Source of the DNA: Armatimonadota bacterium
GTDB lineage: Bacteria > Sysuimicrobiota > Sysuimicrobiia > Sysuimicrobiales > Sysuimicrobiaceae
Direction: 5' to 3'
Assembly: GCA_025060455.1 (NCBI GenBank)
Contig: JANXBY010000038.1
Coordinates: 2,292 to 66,291, forward strand
Length of the DNA stretch: 64,000 nucleotides
The position numbers and the translations under genes were made by a program. How positions within the stretch are numbered: position 1 is the first letter of the stretch; each line of letters starts with the position of its first letter. The notes under the pieces were generated by a model. That model made no database searches, had not been told where the DNA came from, and saw only the letters and a list, made by a program, of their open reading frames with translations. Below, piece by piece: positions 23,500 to 44,573 of this stretch.

Positions 23500-24176
23500 A
23501 CGGCGGGCTGAGGGTGGCCATCGACGGTCCTATGGGCGCGGGCAAGGGAACCGTGGCCCGCCTGGTAGCCTGCAGGTTGGGTTACCGCTACGTGGACACC
23601 GGTGCCATGTACCGGGCCGTGGCGTGGAAGGCCCTCAGGGAGGGCGTGGATCTGGAGGACCCGCGTGCGGTGGAGGAGGTGGCGCGGGCGGCGCGGATCC
23701 GGCTGGAACCGAACCCGGAGGGGATGCGGGTGTGGTGCGACGGGGAAGACGTCACCGAGGCCATCCGGTCCGCGCAGGTGTCCGCGGCGGTGGCTCGGGT
23801 GGCGGCCAACCCTGGCGTCCGGGCGCTGCTCACCGAGCAGCAGCGGGAGATGGCGCGCGGTGGCGGGGTGGTCATGGAGGGGCGGGATATCGGCACCGTG
23901 GTGCTGCCCGACGCGGAGGTGAAGGTGTTCCTCGAAGCCTCCCTGGAGGAGCGGGCGCGGCGGCGGTACGCGGAGCTTCGAGCGCGGGGCGAGGCCGTGT
24001 CCCTGGACCAGGTGCGAGAGCTGGTCCGCCGGGACGATGAGGTGGCCCGCACCCGGATCACCGCGCCCCTGCGGCGTGCCCAGGACGCGGTGTTGGTGGA
24101 CACCACGGGCCGCACGCCGGAGGAGGTGGCGGAGGAGATCGTGCGGTTGGTCGAAGCCCGCGTGGGGGTGCGGTGA
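23496..24176 (+). CDS. cmk: Cytidylate kinase
   Basis: VAIDGPMGAGKGTVARLVACRLGYRYVDTGAMYRAV. GTGA overlap with the upstream gene; the longer ORF from 22995 is rejected. Confidence 0.9.
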   Translation: MNGGLRVAIDGPMGAGKGTVARLVACRLGYRYVDTGAMYRAVAWKALREGVDLEDPRAVEEVARAARIRLEPNPEGMRVWCDGEDVTEAIRSAQVSAAVARVAANPGVRALLTEQQREMARGGGVVMEGRDIGTVVLPDAEVKVFLEASLEERARRRYAELRARGEAVSLDQVRELVRRDDEVARTRITAPLRRAQDAVLVDTTGRTPEEVAEEIVRLVEARVGVR

Positions 24177-24877
24177 TGGAGGTCCGAAGCGGCGAGGCGC
24201 TACGCCCGGAACTCCGGCGCGGCCTGGGAGACTGGGTGTACGCGGCCAGCAAGCTGCTCGTCCAAGGGGTGCTGTACGGTGTTTTCCGCATGGAGGTCAC
24301 GGGACGCGAGCATGAGCCGGCCGAAGGGCCGTTTTTGGCGGTGTCCAACCACTGGAGCGCCTTGGACCCGCCCGTGCTGGGCGCGGCCCTTCGGCGCAAG
24401 GTGCACTTCATGGCCAAGCAGGAGCTGTTCGCGATCCCGGTGCTGCGCAGCTGGATGCGGTGCATTGGAACCTTCCCCGTGCGCCGGGGACAGCCCGACC
24501 GGCAAGCCATCCGCACCGCGCTGCAGGTGCTGGAGCGGGGCGGGGTGGTGGGGATGTTCCCCGAGGGGACGCGCAACCCCCAGGGCTACCTGCTGCCCGC
24601 GGAACCCGGGGCGGCGTTCCTGGCCCTGAAGGCACGGGTTCCCATCCTACCGGTGGGGATCCTGGGGACGCTGGAGGTACTGCCCAAGGGCGCGTGGGTG
24701 CCCCGGATCCGCAAGATCCGGGTACGCATCGGACCGCCGTTTCGGGTGGACGACCTGGTGGACGCCCCGGACCGGTTGCAACAGGCCAGCGACCGCATCA
24801 TGGCTGCCATCGCGGCCCTGTTGGGTGTCCGCCCGCCGGCCCACGCACCGCACGGGCAAGGCCGGGACAGCCCGTGA
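24173..24877 (+). CDS. plsC: 1-acyl-sn-glycerol-3-phosphate acyltransferase
   Basis: HxxxxD acyltransferase motif (VSNHWSALD) and FPEGTR motif. Conserved cmk-plsC-ispH order. Confidence 0.9.
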   Translation: MMEVRSGEALRPELRRGLGDWVYAASKLLVQGVLYGVFRMEVTGREHEPAEGPFLAVSNHWSALDPPVLGAALRRKVHFMAKQELFAIPVLRSWMRCIGTFPVRRGQPDRQAIRTALQVLERGGVVGMFPEGTRNPQGYLLPAEPGAAFLALKARVPILPVGILGTLEVLPKGAWVPRIRKIRVRIGPPFRVDDLVDAPDRLQQASDRIMAAIAALLGVRPPAHAPHGQGRDSP

Positions 24878-24895
24878 TATGCTGGAGGTCAGGTC

Positions 24896-25744
24896 ATGCG
24901 CGTGGTGATCGCCAAGCACATGGGGTTCTGCGGGGGTGTGCGCAGGGCGGTGGACCTCGCCCTGCGCGCAGCGCGGAACGGGCAGGGTGGGGCTTCGACG
25001 TGGGGCCCCCTGATCCACAACCCGCAGGAAGTGGAGCGCCTGAGTCGGGAGGGCGTGCGGGTGGCGCAGCGTCCCGAAGAACTCTCCGGCGTGTTTGTGG
25101 TGTCCGCTTACGGGGTGGAGTCCGCGGTGCTGGAGGCGGTGCGGCAGCGCGGCATGGAGGTCGTGGACGCCACCTGTCCTGTGGTCACCCGGGCCCATGA
25201 GCTGGCCGAGAGGCTCGTGGAGGAGGGCTACTTCGTGGTGGCGGTGGGCGACCACGGGCACCCCGAGATGGTGACGTTGAAGGAGAAACTGGGAGACCGG
25301 GTGGCGGTGGTGCACACGCCGGAGGAGGTGGCCGCGCTCCGGCTGCGGGGCAAGGTGGCGGTGATCTCGCAAACCACCCAGTCCTTGGAGAACTTCCGCC
25401 GCATCGTGGCGGACATCGTGACGCGGGTCAAGGAGACGAAGGTGGTCAACACCCTGTGCCCCGCCATCACCGTGCGGCAGGAAGAGGCGCTGCGCCTGGT
25501 GGAGGAAGTGGACGTGCTGCTGGTGGTGGGGGGGCGCGGCAGCTCCAACACCACCCGGCTGGCGGAGATCGGCCGCCAGTGGGGGGTTGCCACCTACCAC
25601 GTGGAGACCGCGGACGAACTGCACCCCTCGTGGTTTTCCGCGGACTGTACCGTCGGCGTGATGTCCGGGGCGTCGACCCCCGACTGGATCATCGAGCAGG
25701 TGCTGGTGCGCCTGGACGAGATCCGCACCCAGCTCGGCGGCTGA
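24896..25744 (+). CDS. ispH: 4-hydroxy-3-methylbut-2-enyl diphosphate reductase
   Basis: 282 aa with MGFCGGVRRAV, ATCPVVT and NTLCPAI cysteine motifs of IspH/LytB. Confidence 0.95.
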   Translation: MRVVIAKHMGFCGGVRRAVDLALRAARNGQGGASTWGPLIHNPQEVERLSREGVRVAQRPEELSGVFVVSAYGVESAVLEAVRQRGMEVVDATCPVVTRAHELAERLVEEGYFVVAVGDHGHPEMVTLKEKLGDRVAVVHTPEEVAALRLRGKVAVISQTTQSLENFRRIVADIVTRVKETKVVNTLCPAITVRQEEALRLVEEVDVLLVVGGRGSSNTTRLAEIGRQWGVATYHVETADELHPSWFSADCTVGVMSGASTPDWIIEQVLVRLDEIRTQLGG

Positions 25745-25751
25745 GGCTCGG

Positions 25752-26168
25752 TCAGCCTCCCGGGTTCAGGAGCTGCGTGCACACAGACACCACGTGCTGG
25801 GCGTCCCTTCGGGCGCGGTCGGCGTCCTCCGCGGTGTACTCGAGGGTCGGGATGAAGTCCACATCTCCGTAGAAGGAGAACTCCCGTTCCTTCCTCAGCC
25901 ACTTCGAAATCCGGGCGAGGTCGCGGAGCTGGGTCTGGACCTCCGCGGGGAAGCGGTCGGCATGCTCCAGCAGAACGGGACCCACGTCGTGGAGCTTCGG
26001 AGGTTCCACACCGACGAGGCGAAGCGCGCCCTTCAGCGCCAGCTCCACGACCTCCTGTGCTTCCCGGACCACGTCGGAGTAGGCGCCCTGCTGGTACAGG
26101 AGGTCCAGCACGGGCAGGCGCTTCCGTGCCTTGTCCAGGTACGCGCGCCCCAGGGAGCTATTCGTCAC
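25752..26168 (-). CDS. HEPN-domain toxin of a HEPN/MNT toxin-antitoxin pair
   Basis: About 138 aa HEPN fold. GTG start overlaps the stop of the upstream MNT gene (GTGA). The track ORF extends to 26219, which would overlap MNT by 55 nt. Confidence 0.7.
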   Translation of the reverse strand: MTNSSLGRAYLDKARKRLPVLDLLYQQGAYSDVVREAQEVVELALKGALRLVGVEPPKLHDVGPVLLEHADRFPAEVQTQLRDLARISKWLRKEREFSFYGDVDFIPTLEYTAEDADRARRDAQHVVSVCTQLLNPGG

Positions 26169-26674
26169 AGTTCGAACTCCTCGCCGGGGCGGAACGGGTC
26201 TTTGAGCCGCCAGTACCACGCTCCCCCGTACGGGATGCGGCGGGCCCCCAGCTCCCGCAGGCGGTGCTGGAGCTCCGACAGGATCCGGGCGAAGAAGCCA
26301 CCGCGGTCGTACAGGATCCGCGCGTCCTCCGTCATGTCGAGGAACAAGGGAATCTTCCGCGCGGCCTCCTCGGGGGTCAGCAGGACGGGGGACAGGCTCG
26401 CCCGCACGCCGGCCTTAGAAGCCGCCCGCAGGTCTCCTTCCACGGCGTCCTCCACCGGCTCGAAGGTCTCCAGCCTGCGGACACGGCCACGCGGCAGGTC
26501 CTCCACCACCAGCAAGAGGTCCACGTCCGAATCCGGCCGAGGCACTCCCCGGCCCACGGAACCGAAGACGGCGAAGCTCACCAGCCGTTCTCCGTACACC
26601 CGGTGTGCTTCCTCGAGGCAGCGCCGCACAAGCCGCTCGTACGTGTGCCGGACGCCCGGGGCCATCGCTGCCAT
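26165..26674 (-). CDS. Nucleotidyltransferase (MNT/minimal NTase) antitoxin
   Basis: 169 aa. The GSVGRG...DSDVDLLLVVED motif is the Pol-beta-like NTase GS/DxD signature. Only the 3' 510 nt of the 26165-27670 antisense ORF is real. Confidence 0.8.
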   Translation of the reverse strand: MAAMAPGVRHTYERLVRRCLEEAHRVYGERLVSFAVFGSVGRGVPRPDSDVDLLLVVEDLPRGRVRRLETFEPVEDAVEGDLRAASKAGVRASLSPVLLTPEEAARKIPLFLDMTEDARILYDRGGFFARILSELQHRLRELGARRIPYGGAWYWRLKDPFRPGEEFEL

Positions 26675-26704
26675 TCTACCCCAGTGGTAACATGGGAAGC
26701 CGTA

Positions 26705-28048
26705 GTGCGCACGCGACGGCTTCCTCTCGTGGCCCTGGTGGGCCGTCCCAACGTAGGCAAGTCGGCGTTGTTCAACCGCATCGCGCGCCGGCGGCTGGCC
26801 ATCGTGGAGGACACGCCGGGGGTCACCCGCGACCGGCTGTACACGGAGGTGGAGTGGTCGGGCCGGCGGTTCGGGCTGGTGGACACGGGTGGCTACGTCC
26901 CCCGGTCCCAGGATCCCCTGGTGGAGCAGGTGCGGTGGCAGGCGCAGCAAGCGGTGGAGGAGGCAGACGTGGTGGTGTTGGTGGTGGACGCACAGGCGGG
27001 CGTTGTGCCGTCGGACCACGAGGTTGCGGAGGTGCTGCGGCGGTCCGGGAAGCCGGTGGTGGTGGCGGTGAACAAGGTGGACTCCCCCGGCGAGGCGGCC
27101 GCCGCGGGTGCGGAGTTCTCCGCCCTGGGATTTGAAGAGGTCGTCCCCGTCTCCGCCCTGCACGGGCTGCGGGTGAACGACCTGCTGGACCGAGTCCTGC
27201 GGCACCTGCCGGGGCCGGCGGAGGCGGAGGCGGAGGAGGAGGCGGTGCGGGTGTCGGTGGTGGGGCGTCCCAACGTGGGCAAGTCGTCCCTGGTGAACGC
27301 TCTGGTGGGCGCGCCGCGGGTGGTGGTGGACGAGCGGCCGGGCACCACCCGGGATGCCGTGGACACCCTCCTGCGGCACCGGGACCGGCCTTTCCTGCTG
27401 GTGGACACCGCCGGGCTGCGGCGCCGGGCCCGCGTGCGGGAGGCGCTGGAGTTCTACAGCGCGCGGCGGGCCCAGCAGGCCCTGGAGCGGTGCCACGTGG
27501 CGGTTCTGGTGGTGGACGCCTCGGAAGGCGTCACCGACCAGGATCAGCGCATTGCCCGGGAGGTGGCGGACCGGGGAAAGGCGCTGGTGGTGGCGGCCAA
27601 CAAATGGGACCTGGTGCGGGGGGGCCTGGCGGAGGAGCGGGCCAAGCAACTGTACCACGCCCTCCGGCACGTTTCATTCGCCCCGGTGCTCTTCGTCTCC
27701 GCCAAGACCGGCCGCAACGTCACCCGCATCCTGGACGCGGCCCTGCGGGTGGACCGAGCCCACGCCCTGCGGGTGCCCACCGGGCCGTTGAACCGCGCGG
27801 TGGAGGCTGCGGAGGCCGCACACCCAGCACCCGCAGACGCCTGGGGCCGGGCCCTGAAGATCTACTACGCCACTCAGGTCTCGACCCGTCCACCGACGGT
27901 GGCCCTGTTCGTGAACTTCCCGGAGCTGGCCACGGAGGCGTACCTGCGGCACCTGGAAGCCCGGTTGCGAGAGCGGTTCGACTTCGAGGGCACGCCGATC
28001 CGGTTCGTGTTGCGGGCGCGGCGGCCGCGCCGGGAGGAACGGCCGTGA
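26705..28048 (+). CDS. der: Ribosome-biogenesis GTPase Der (EngA)
   Basis: Two tandem GTPase domains (GRPNVGKS twice; DTGG and DTAG), then a KH-like C-terminus. Start is ambiguous: in-frame GTG at 26684, 26705 or 26726. The 26057 ORF start is rejected because it overlaps the antisense toxin-antitoxin genes. Confidence 0.9.
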   Translation: MRTRRLPLVALVGRPNVGKSALFNRIARRRLAIVEDTPGVTRDRLYTEVEWSGRRFGLVDTGGYVPRSQDPLVEQVRWQAQQAVEEADVVVLVVDAQAGVVPSDHEVAEVLRRSGKPVVVAVNKVDSPGEAAAAGAEFSALGFEEVVPVSALHGLRVNDLLDRVLRHLPGPAEAEAEEEAVRVSVVGRPNVGKSSLVNALVGAPRVVVDERPGTTRDAVDTLLRHRDRPFLLVDTAGLRRRARVREALEFYSARRAQQALERCHVAVLVVDASEGVTDQDQRIAREVADRGKALVVAANKWDLVRGGLAEERAKQLYHALRHVSFAPVLFVSAKTGRNVTRILDAALRVDRAHALRVPTGPLNRAVEAAEAAHPAPADAWGRALKIYYATQVSTRPPTVALFVNFPELATEAYLRHLEARLRERFDFEGTPIRFVLRARRPRREERP

Positions 28049-28665
28049 CGGGGCCGCTGCTGCTCCTGGCCGCCTACCTCCTGGGTTCCGTGCCCACGGG
28101 CCTTTGGGTGGTACGCGCGGTGCTGGGCGTGGACGTACGGCAGCTGGGAAGCGGGAACACCGGGACCACGAACGTGTACCGAGTGGCAGGACCGTGGGTG
28201 GGTGCCGTGGTGCTGTTGCTGGACGCCGCCAAGGGAGCGCTGCCGGTGCTGGCCAGCGGCGCCCTGGGCCTGGGGGCCGGCTGGACGGTGGCCGCAGGCC
28301 TGAGCAGCGTGGTGGGGCACAACTGGTCCGTGTTCCTGGGCTTCCGGGGCGGGAAAGGGGTGGCCACCAGCCTCGGAGCGCTGACGGCGCTGTCACCCAC
28401 CGCAGCCGCTGTGGCCGTCGTGGTGTGGGGGACCGCGGTGGTGGTGACCCGCTACGCGTCCGTGGGGAGTCTCCTCGCCATGCTGTCGGTGCCCGTGACC
28501 CTGCTGGCGAGGGGAGAGCCGGGAGCCCACGTGGCGTTGGGGGCGGCGCTGGCGGCACTGGGCATCTGGCGCCACCGGTCGAACCTCCGGCGGCTGCGGG
28601 AGGGGACCGAGCTGAAGGTCACCGACCGGCCGTCCGGCCCCGGCGGGAGGGACGTGCGGGCGTAG
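28045..28665 (+). CDS. plsY: Glycerol-3-phosphate acyltransferase PlsY
   Basis: About 206 aa membrane protein (GSGNTGTTNVYR motif). GTGA overlap with der. Confidence 0.9.
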   Translation: MTGPLLLLAAYLLGSVPTGLWVVRAVLGVDVRQLGSGNTGTTNVYRVAGPWVGAVVLLLDAAKGALPVLASGALGLGAGWTVAAGLSSVVGHNWSVFLGFRGGKGVATSLGALTALSPTAAAVAVVVWGTAVVVTRYASVGSLLAMLSVPVTLLARGEPGAHVALGAALAALGIWRHRSNLRRLREGTELKVTDRPSGPGGRDVRA

Positions 28666-43903: not shown

Positions 43904-44515
43904 CTACAGCCTGCGGACCAAGCCCACCGCCTTGCCCTCGATCACCACCTCGCGGGTGTAGATGGGCTCCATGGCTGGGTTTTCCGGCTGCAGCCGGATG
44001 CGATCCCCTTCCCGGTAGAAGCGCTTGACTGTGGCCTCGTCGCCGATGCGGGCCACCACGATGTCGCCGTCCTGGGCGTGGGACTGGCGGCGCACCACGA
44101 GATAGTCCCCGTCGTAGATCCCCGCACCCACCATGGAGTCCCCGCGGACCCGGAGCATGAAGCACTCTCCGCTCCCCACGAAGTCCTCGGGCAGGGTGAA
44201 GGAGTCTTCGATGTTCTGCTCTGCCAGGATGGGAGCACCCGCGGTGACCCGCCCCACCACCGGCAGCGACACCACGCGCTTGTGGGGCAGGCTTGTGGGG
44301 TCCTTGAGGACCTCGATGGCGCGGGGCTTGCTGGGATCCCGCCGCAGGTATCCTTTCTTCTCCAGGGCGCTGAGGTGGCTGTGCACGGTGGAGCTGCTGG
44401 TGAGGTGGAGGGCGTTTCCGATGTCCCGCACGGAGGGCGGGTAGCCCCGCCGGCGGGTGTACTCAATCACGTAGTCCAGAATCTGGCGCTGCCGCCGTGT
44501 GAGCCCTCTGCTCAT
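43904..44515 (-). CDS. lexA: LexA repressor
   Basis: 203 aa. N-terminal winged HTH ([15 protein letters not shown]) and a C-terminal S24 peptidase domain with AG cleavage site and Ser/Lys dyad context (GDSM, VKRF). The long antisense ORF 43904-45871 is rejected. Confidence 0.95.
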
Positions 44516-44573
44516 GGTCGTCCCCCTTTGCGCTGAGCGTGACCGTATCTTACCACACAGGTTTTCGATAGGC

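Follow-up and report, generated by a model that had tools for sequence, protein, structure and literature searches.

Class II of the HEPN/MNT modules is defined by a HEPN protein of Pfam family PF05168 and a nucleotidyltransferase of family PF01909, with the RX4HXY motif missing, the GSX10DXD motif kept and a conserved tyrosine (PMC7641770). The class began as a prediction by Makarova, Wolf and Koonin and was named by Yao et al. in 2020 (PMC7641770); that study and a 2024 paper (PMC11586414) state or imply that it is uncharacterised. Class I includes the type VII toxin–antitoxin (TA) pairs HepT/MntA of Shewanella (SO_3166/SO_3165), Aphanizomenon and Legionella. Here we describe a HEPN/MNT pair in a 64,000-nucleotide (nt) stretch of DNA from an Armatimonadota bacterium (contig JANXBY010000038.1; the whole stretch is called the window below). 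The pair is encoded on the minus strand between ispH and der, and its sequence makes it a member of the known, predicted class II. We favour, at a little better than even probability for the two parts jointly, an account in which an ancestor of this Armatimonadota clade acquired the module within a tight ispH–der junction, on the opposite strand, and purifying selection has acted on it since, and in which HEPN is controlled by MNT, which nucleotidylates a tyrosine of a HEPN loop.

Assignment of the pair to class II

The MNT gene comes first (26165–26665, minus strand; ATG at 26665, stop TGA at 26167–26165), and encodes a 166-amino acid (aa) nucleotidyltransferase that matches PF01909 with E=3.1e-7 (31.1 bits against a cut-off of 21). 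The HEPN gene follows (25752–26168, minus strand; GTG start at 26168, TGA end at 25752) and encodes a 138-aa protein matching PF05168 with E=3.4e-17 (63.1 bits against a cut-off of 22). PF05168 is the only one of the relevant families that the HEPN protein matched; DUF86/PF01934 and PF08780 did not match. An identical HEPN protein exists as a public record from an Armatimonadota metagenome-assembled genome. The initial annotation of this DNA had described a two-gene module, MNT then HEPN, on the minus strand between ispH and der, and this description stands with small shifts of start codons. Because the same layout recurs in at least nine independent contigs (L001–L006, L093–L096), an assembly artefact is ruled out. 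No second copy of the pair occurs elsewhere in the 64-kb window. We found 2391 homologues of the HEPN protein and 1070 clusters at 50% identity, and for MNT 781 homologues, mostly 160–185 aa long.

The toxin–antitoxin label of the initial annotation holds in part. The pair is a two-gene HEPN/MNT module, and it shows the generic TA architecture: a compact operon of two genes with the antitoxin first, patchily distributed and set in unrelated genomic contexts. The canonical RNase motif (Rx4-6H) is absent, and 'toxin–antitoxin' applies to the window pair by analogy, as it does to class II (PMC7641770, PMC11586414).

The AlphaFold2 model of the HEPN protein shows the four-helix up-and-down core of the HEPN superfamily, including the insert that separates helix 2 from helix 3. 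The model has a predicted local distance difference test (pLDDT) score of 87, with helices at residues 3–26, 30–51, 81–99 and 113–134 and the insert at 52–80; the loop at 98–105 is its sole low-confidence part. A comparison of folds was needed because no meaningful match came from searching PDB sequences, whether the query was the HEPN protein itself or a profile built from its alignment (A1). The best PDB folds found with Foldseek are 1wol (ST0689), 1ufb (TT1696), 3o10 (sacsin HEPN), 2hsb (AF0298) and 1o3u (TM0613), with template modelling (TM) scores of 0.61–0.77. HepT toxins superpose poorly on the model, with TM scores of 0.38–0.50.

An Rx4-6H motif had been expected in the HEPN protein, with its absence on alignment named as evidence to the contrary. 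It is indeed absent, as is RX4HXY, from the window protein in alignments A1 and A5: no histidine lies within 4–6 residues of R92 or R95. The segment R92-K-E-R95-E-F-S-F-Y100-G-D-V-D-F-I-P107 (codons at 25848–25895, minus strand), which spans helix 3's end and the loop, reads R95-x4-Y100 at the motif position (R95-EFSF-Y100-G), with Tyr100 in the place of the histidine. Conservation was assessed in 40 relatives drawn from the 1070 clusters and 38–62% identical to the window protein. Only R35, H60 and R95 are invariant among them, and conservation is 90% or higher at Q38, E39, E42, D61, Y100 and G101. H60 and D61 (25986–25991, minus strand) belong to a 'PPxxHDV' motif away from the canonical one, and R35 begins a conserved polar and acidic patch in helix 2 (R35-E-A-Q38-E39-V-V-E42; 26043–26066, minus strand). 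Members of PF05168 often replace the motif histidine and have a conserved histidine elsewhere (PMC3710099, Table 1), and the invariant H60 of a protein that has no motif histidine fits this published pattern.

The MNT protein consists of a Pol-beta-type core and a conserved C-terminal extension of ∼60 aa. Its catalytic motif, G35-S36-x10-D47-V-D49 (26519–26563, minus strand; translation GSVGRGVPRPDSDVD), is an intact GSx10DxD, and G35, S36, D47 and D49 are invariant in 40 homologues. The AlphaFold2 model (pLDDT 93) has as its best PDB fold the MntA of Shewanella (7bxo/6m6u), in the core only and with a query-normalised TM score of 0.48; aminoglycoside nucleotidyltransferases and HalB come next, again in the core only. 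Residues ∼105–166 (26165–26350, minus strand) are conserved as LFLDM.EDARILYD...LGARR...GAWYW.LK....PGE.FEL. This C-terminal third is confidently predicted as a helix and a beta-hairpin, for which neither MntA nor other minimal nucleotidyltransferases of solved structure offer an equivalent. The region may take part in HEPN docking.

Some members of the subfamily join both proteins in a single chain. Four are nucleotidyltransferase–HEPN fusions (P0245, P0251, P0277 and P0332) and two are HicB–nucleotidyltransferase–HEPN fusions (P0297 and P0340) with an N-terminal HicB-type, antitoxin-like domain. All six keep R35, H60 and R95, and the existence of single-chain forms shows that the two proteins function together as one unit. 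P0245, which looks as if the two-gene arrangement had been read through, may stem from a sequencing error.

History of the insertion site

We searched a set of genomes, one for each species, with Der as the query and then located the window proteins in each locus. The ispH–der junction had been taken to be broadly conserved, which the survey contradicts: ispH adjoins der in just two of the 80 der loci (L011 and L012), both from Armatimonadota-type relatives, and the other 78 (Der 43–50% identical) have no ispH match near der. One of the two is an empty site. In L012, from an Armatimonadota metagenome-assembled genome (Der 61%, IspH 69% identical), 17 nt separate the ispH stop from the der ATG. 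This locus is the sole empty comparator found and has a different wider neighbourhood, with an ABC transporter upstream of ispH; its 17-nt spacer supports the proposal that the module was inserted into an ispH–der junction.

Occupied sites were found in L003–L006 (Der 89–90% identical, pair 85%), in L093 and L094 (IspH 84–86%, pair 76%) and in L095 and L096 (Der 86%, pair 74–78%), and the pair has the same orientation in all of them. The other ispH–der locus, L011 (Bacterium HR32; Der 84% identical), holds a remnant: its spacer (265–658, ∼395 nt) retains frame-broken HEPN residues 65–111, and MNT is gone. A metagenome contig, L105 (spacer 201–597), is a second locus of this kind. In both, the 5′ half of the HEPN gene is missing and the der-leader block described in the next section survives, a pattern that fits a single deletion of the promoter, MNT and the HEPN start.

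Between the window and L003, synonymous divergence (dS) is 0.60–0.73 for the pair and 0.52–0.80 for ispH, der, plsC and cmk. The ratio of nonsynonymous to synonymous divergence (dN/dS) in the same comparison is 0.12 for HEPN, 0.17 for MNT and 0.11–0.24 for the flanking genes. Across the same-site comparisons the corresponding ranges are 0.12–0.20, 0.17–0.21 and 0.10–0.28; against the pair of L007, which lies at another site, HEPN and MNT give 0.11 and 0.14. Since dS of the pair equals that of its flanks and dN/dS is low, the pair has co-diverged with its neighbours under purifying selection. Judged by these sequence comparisons, the insertion is old and vertically inherited, not a fresh mobile event.

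Over longer times the module does move, as its sites in other genomes indicate. In L007–L010, L091 and L092 an 80%-identical pair has a molybdoenzyme gene on one side and a Complex1_30kDa-family gene on the other, and here again it is opposite in strand to both co-directional neighbours (L007, 5438–6465; L091, 955–1983). Distant copies, 65–68% identical, occupy three unrelated settings: a Nitrospira glycosyltransferase cluster, the birA–bioY interval of an Atribacterota genome, and L099 (600–5426; contig_9149 of a 5.6-Mb genome). There the class II pair stands right after a class I pair (PF01909 with a HepT-like PF01934 protein), and the locus is a small island of TA modules and insertion sequences (IS). 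The L099 region also carries a lone NTP_transf_2 gene, a DUF2442 gene and IS110 and IS481 transposases, and lies inside a sugar-nucleotide/polysaccharide cluster. Altogether the pair occurs in at least five unrelated genomic contexts, and its distribution is patchy.

Translational coupling and putative promoters

The MNT stop codon TGA and the HEPN start codon GTG share bases in a GTGA overlap (26165–26168, minus strand; checked base by base), and each of the other seven loci examined, which come from several phyla, keeps a GTGA or ATGA overlap. The HEPN start is preceded at a distance of 8 nt by a GAGGAG Shine–Dalgarno sequence (26177–26182, minus strand), which falls within the codons for the conserved C-terminal end of MNT (PGEEFEL). 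Six of seven relatives have GGnGAGG at the equivalent position, and L007 has the weaker GAGAAGAG. The overlap of stop and start implies that translation of HEPN is coupled to that of MNT, and with a Shine–Dalgarno sequence inside the MNT 3′ end this predicted coupling is conserved.

Upstream of der lies a 20-nt leader block, TGGTAACAT-GGGAAGCCGTA (26685–26704, plus strand), which ends 1 nt before the der GTG and is identical or near-identical in L001–L006, L095, L096 and L011. It contains an extended −10-like element, TGnTAACAT, and a Shine–Dalgarno-like GGGAAG. Wherever an occupied or remnant locus covers the der junction, der starts with GTG and is preceded by the consensus of the block, TGGTAA(C/G)ATGG(G/A)AAGCCG(Y)A; the empty site in L012 has no such block. 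It stays with der despite a 184-nt MNT–der spacer in L095 and despite the deletion of MNT in L011. If the block were translated, variation at each of its three variable positions would alter an amino acid, and this, together with the retention of the block, argues for constraint at the nucleotide level. Of the 32 matches that a metagenome scan for the block gave, 31 arose by chance in unrelated contigs, most of them lower in G+C; the remaining one is L105. The extended −10 shape itself, TGNTAANAT, occurs twice in the 64 kb against an expected 0.17, and its other copy belongs to a textbook promoter ahead of a lexA-like gene, which we used as an internal example of how a promoter looks in this genome. 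Upstream of that gene (minus strand; ATG at 44514), the stretch 44514–44560 holds TTGCCT-17-TAAGAT with a TGG extension (TGGTAAGAT, 44555–44547) and an AAGGGGGA Shine–Dalgarno sequence.

A promoter would not fit into the spacer of the empty site, and we therefore infer that der was ancestrally co-transcribed with ispH and that it is now served by its own conserved −10-like block. The initial annotation had reasoned that the insertion isolates der from ispH, so that a der promoter must lie inside the module genes unless der is read through. The isolation of der and its need for signals of its own are borne out; a promoter within the module genes is not necessary, given the conserved −10-like block in the spacer.

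On the other strand, a −10-like hexamer, TAGAAT (26673–26678, minus strand), lies 7 nt upstream of the MNT ATG. A TAnnnT hexamer is found 7–10 nt before the MNT ATG in all loci of the clade despite their divergence (TAGAAT, TACACT, TAGACT and TGcTACAAT), including the alternative site in L007 and L091, where a TGcTACAAT box stands 9 nt before the ATG. By our own rough estimate, at 70% G+C such a hexamer would fall in a span of 4–5 positions by chance in ∼1–2% of independent sequences. The spacer between box and ATG (GGCAGCG) has no Shine–Dalgarno sequence in the window or in L003, which suggests a leaderless MNT–HEPN mRNA starting from the TAGAAT box. Leaderless transcription of MNT as a trait of the whole family was considered and rejected: the layout is confined to the clade, and distant relatives have Shine–Dalgarno-led or short-leader arrangements.

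The −10-like boxes of the module and of der (26673–26678 and 26685–26693) stand back to back, 6 bp apart. At the other end of the module ispH and the HEPN gene converge, with a gap of 7 nt between their stops (25745–25751; ispH TGA at 25742–25744, HEPN stop at 25754–25752 on the minus strand). An intrinsic-terminator scan of 25400–27000 detected no terminator between ispH and HEPN, and the local hairpin at their junction was no better than those of shuffled sequences in the window and in L003 (z −1.3 and −1.0). With no terminator there and with back-to-back boxes, antisense read-through is possible in both directions.

Proposed mechanism and alternatives

In the mechanism that we propose, MNT would be made first, from a leaderless transcript that begins at the TAGAAT box, and HEPN would be translated through coupling. 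By analogy with type VII HepT/MntA, MNT would then nucleotidylate a tyrosine in the flexible loop between helices 3 and 4 of HEPN, the best candidate being Y100. This modification would keep switched off a growth-inhibiting and probably RNA-directed activity of HEPN, for which the protein may use an alternative, non-canonical site formed by R35, H60 and R95. We regard this mode of control as slightly more probable than its negation. The insertion would also have broken the co-transcription of ispH and der, and the promoters of module and der probably compete for RNA polymerase. A stronger version combines a coupling of the module to der control, by promoter competition or antisense read-through, with an R35/H60/R95 site gated by nucleotidylation of Y100. 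We consider this combination improbable as a whole; if true, the coupling to der would explain why a normally dispensable module is kept at one site under housekeeping-like selection.

Several observations weigh against our proposal. Our literature searches, in the papers available to them, yielded no published toxicity or nucleotidylation test of any class II module. The HEPN protein has no Rx4-6H motif and no PADLOC match, and MNT scores 20.3 bits against the NCBIfam model MntA_antitoxin (NF047752), whose cut-off is 60. No plasmid or phage homologues were found by tblastn of HEPN in annotated collections, and an identity of 60–70% across phyla with long syntenic retention would be unusual for a selfish TA module. 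For the transcriptional part, both promoters are proposed from sequence, a scan of 25400–27000 for two-hexamer sigma-70 promoters found none, and the der block cannot serve as −10 box and Shine–Dalgarno element of one and the same transcript. The missing Rx4-6H motif, the 60–70% identity across phyla and the lack of plasmid, phage and, for HEPN, PADLOC matches also speak for a rival reading: the pair would be a domesticated two-subunit nucleotidyltransferase serving the host, in which MNT is catalytic, HEPN has a substrate-binding or regulatory role (cf. the two domains of kanamycin nucleotidyltransferase or GlnE) and the target of the complex is another protein, an RNA or a small molecule. 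The idea that HEPN binds the substrate of MNT is summarised in PMC3710099, the HEPN model folds most like classic HEPN proteins that are uncharacterised and like sacsin, with HepT at low TM scores, and the single-chain fusions, HicB-bearing ones included, fit an obligate enzyme complex as well as they fit a TA pair. Housekeeping-like dN/dS values and the retention of one site over dS of ∼0.6–1.2 point the same way. Against such an enzyme stand the patchy distribution in unrelated contexts, the L099 island with its class I HepT/MntA pair and IS elements, the loss of the module without replacement in HR32 and L105, and the antitoxin-first, overlapping gene order that is typical of TA modules; the invariance of R35, H60 and R95, too, suggests a catalytic site in HEPN itself. 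We consider the two-subunit enzyme possible, at a probability well short of even.

That the pair acts in abortive infection or other anti-phage defence, with HEPN as an effector nuclease released or activated on infection and MNT as its guard, seems to us unlikely. Many HEPN proteins are defence effectors (PMC3710099), and distant homologues of the pair lie in variable polysaccharide or IS-rich regions. MNT gives weak matches to the PADLOC candidate system PDC-S09 (E=3e-10, nucleotidyltransferase core only) and to HalB of the Hailong system (E=5.5e-5), but these extend over no more than the generic GS...DxD core, with scores far short of the family cut-offs (23 against 190 bits for HalB); HEPN matches no PADLOC model, and the window module sits between two housekeeping genes, outside any defence island. 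More doubtful still is the view of the initial annotation that a mobile element recently inserted the pair into a core operon, for which we see very little probability. It accounts for the orientation opposite to both neighbours, for the empty site in L012 and for a G+C content slightly below that of the flanks (0.66–0.70 against 0.70–0.77). Against it, four other lineages, 86–90% identical in der or ispH, share the pair at this site. Either the pair or its remnant is found at the same site at 84–90% Der identity, with a decayed copy in HR32, the site is occupied down to 76% HEPN identity, and the dS values of pair and flanks match. A search of the module flanks for terminal repeats, target duplications and direct or inverted repeats gave only short chance matches, and no integrase or transposase lies near the pair. 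An old insertion followed by vertical inheritance and purifying selection is the history that we retain.

The locus offers a natural series of states of a single site (empty, occupied, relocated and decayed) and an example of an essential gene that was cut from its operon and gained start signals of its own. Class II pairs are abundant (∼2400 close HEPN homologues, and the 1070 clusters given above), and the analysis supplies a list of residues to mutate: R35, H60, R95 and Y100 in HEPN, and G35, S36, D47 and D49 in MNT.

Gene calls and neighbouring features

At ∼70% G+C, stop-free mechanical open reading frames (ORFs) are plentiful on every strand of the window, and true genes were picked out through family searches with Pfam and TIGRFAM/NCBIfam cut-offs. 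On the plus strand these identify cmk (23508–24176), plsC (24173–24877) and ispH (24896–25744; 4-hydroxy-3-methylbut-2-enyl diphosphate reductase, 282 aa; PF02401, E=1e-84; TIGR00216, 268 bits against a cut-off of 188). Beyond the module they identify der (26705–28048, plus strand, GTG start; ribosome-biogenesis GTPase EngA/Der; TIGR03594, 525 bits against a cut-off of 307), whose 447 aa equal the length called in all relatives. Two long ORFs, 25794–26690 (plus strand, 298 aa, antisense to the module) and 26165–27670 (minus strand, 501 aa), were rejected as high-G+C artefacts. The latter is the MNT frame prolonged through the antisense of der, and artefacts of this sort could mislead an automated choice of start codon.

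For MNT, the upstream ATG at 26674 (169 aa) is the less likely start; it falls within the TAGAAT box, and the second methionine is the one at which homologues begin. That second ATG (26665) is the start in every homologue and in every public gene call. For der, we discarded an in-frame GTG at 26684, since L095 and L011 have CTG there and since with this start all three variable sites of the leader block would be non-synonymous. With the likeliest starts the MNT–der spacer measures 39 nt, against 9–30 nt with the starts of the initial annotation. An Rfam scan of 24500–28500 at E≤1 returned no RNA family.

Comparison with known systems

Among single-chain enzymes, kanamycin nucleotidyltransferase (KNTase), AadA and Hailong HalB share with the window pair a Pol-beta nucleotidyltransferase core and a helical domain or partner of the HEPN clan, and they match the MNT model at E∼1e-4. 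They differ in being one chain and in acting on other substrates, and the matches are limited to the core and lie far under the family cut-offs. The structures closest to the HEPN protein, ST0689, TT1696, AF0298, TM0613 and the sacsin HEPN domain, are likewise of PF05168 type with a four-helix core and a helix 2–3 insert. They are 14–24% identical to it, and for none of them is a biochemical activity assigned within a module of two genes; sacsin is a multidomain protein of eukaryotes.

Type VII HepT/MntA resembles the window pair in gene order, in the overlap of the two genes and in the GSx10DxD motif; MntA is the closest fold to MNT, and a flexible loop bearing a tyrosine follows helix 3 of the HEPN protein in both. 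The HEPN partner is where the two part: HepT belongs to DUF86/PF01934 and carries R-x4-H-x-Y, whereas the window protein belongs to PF05168 and reads R-x4-Y-G, and HepT structures give low TM scores. The window MNT scores 20 bits against the 60 required by the MntA model and adds the C-terminal region of ∼60 aa.

With class II itself the agreement extends to both Pfam families, MNT upstream, GSx10DxD, the lack of RX4HXY, a conserved tyrosine near the motif position and a frequent occurrence in thermophile-type lineages. No defining feature differs. The window subfamily is distinguished by its longer MNT (∼166 aa) with the conserved C-terminal helix and beta-hairpin, which end in ...WYW.LK....PGE.FEL, and the subfamily as such shows unusual conservation across phyla. 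The locus does not overturn current understanding; it adds a member to a known but uncharacterised class, and as such is a modest and fairly ordinary find.

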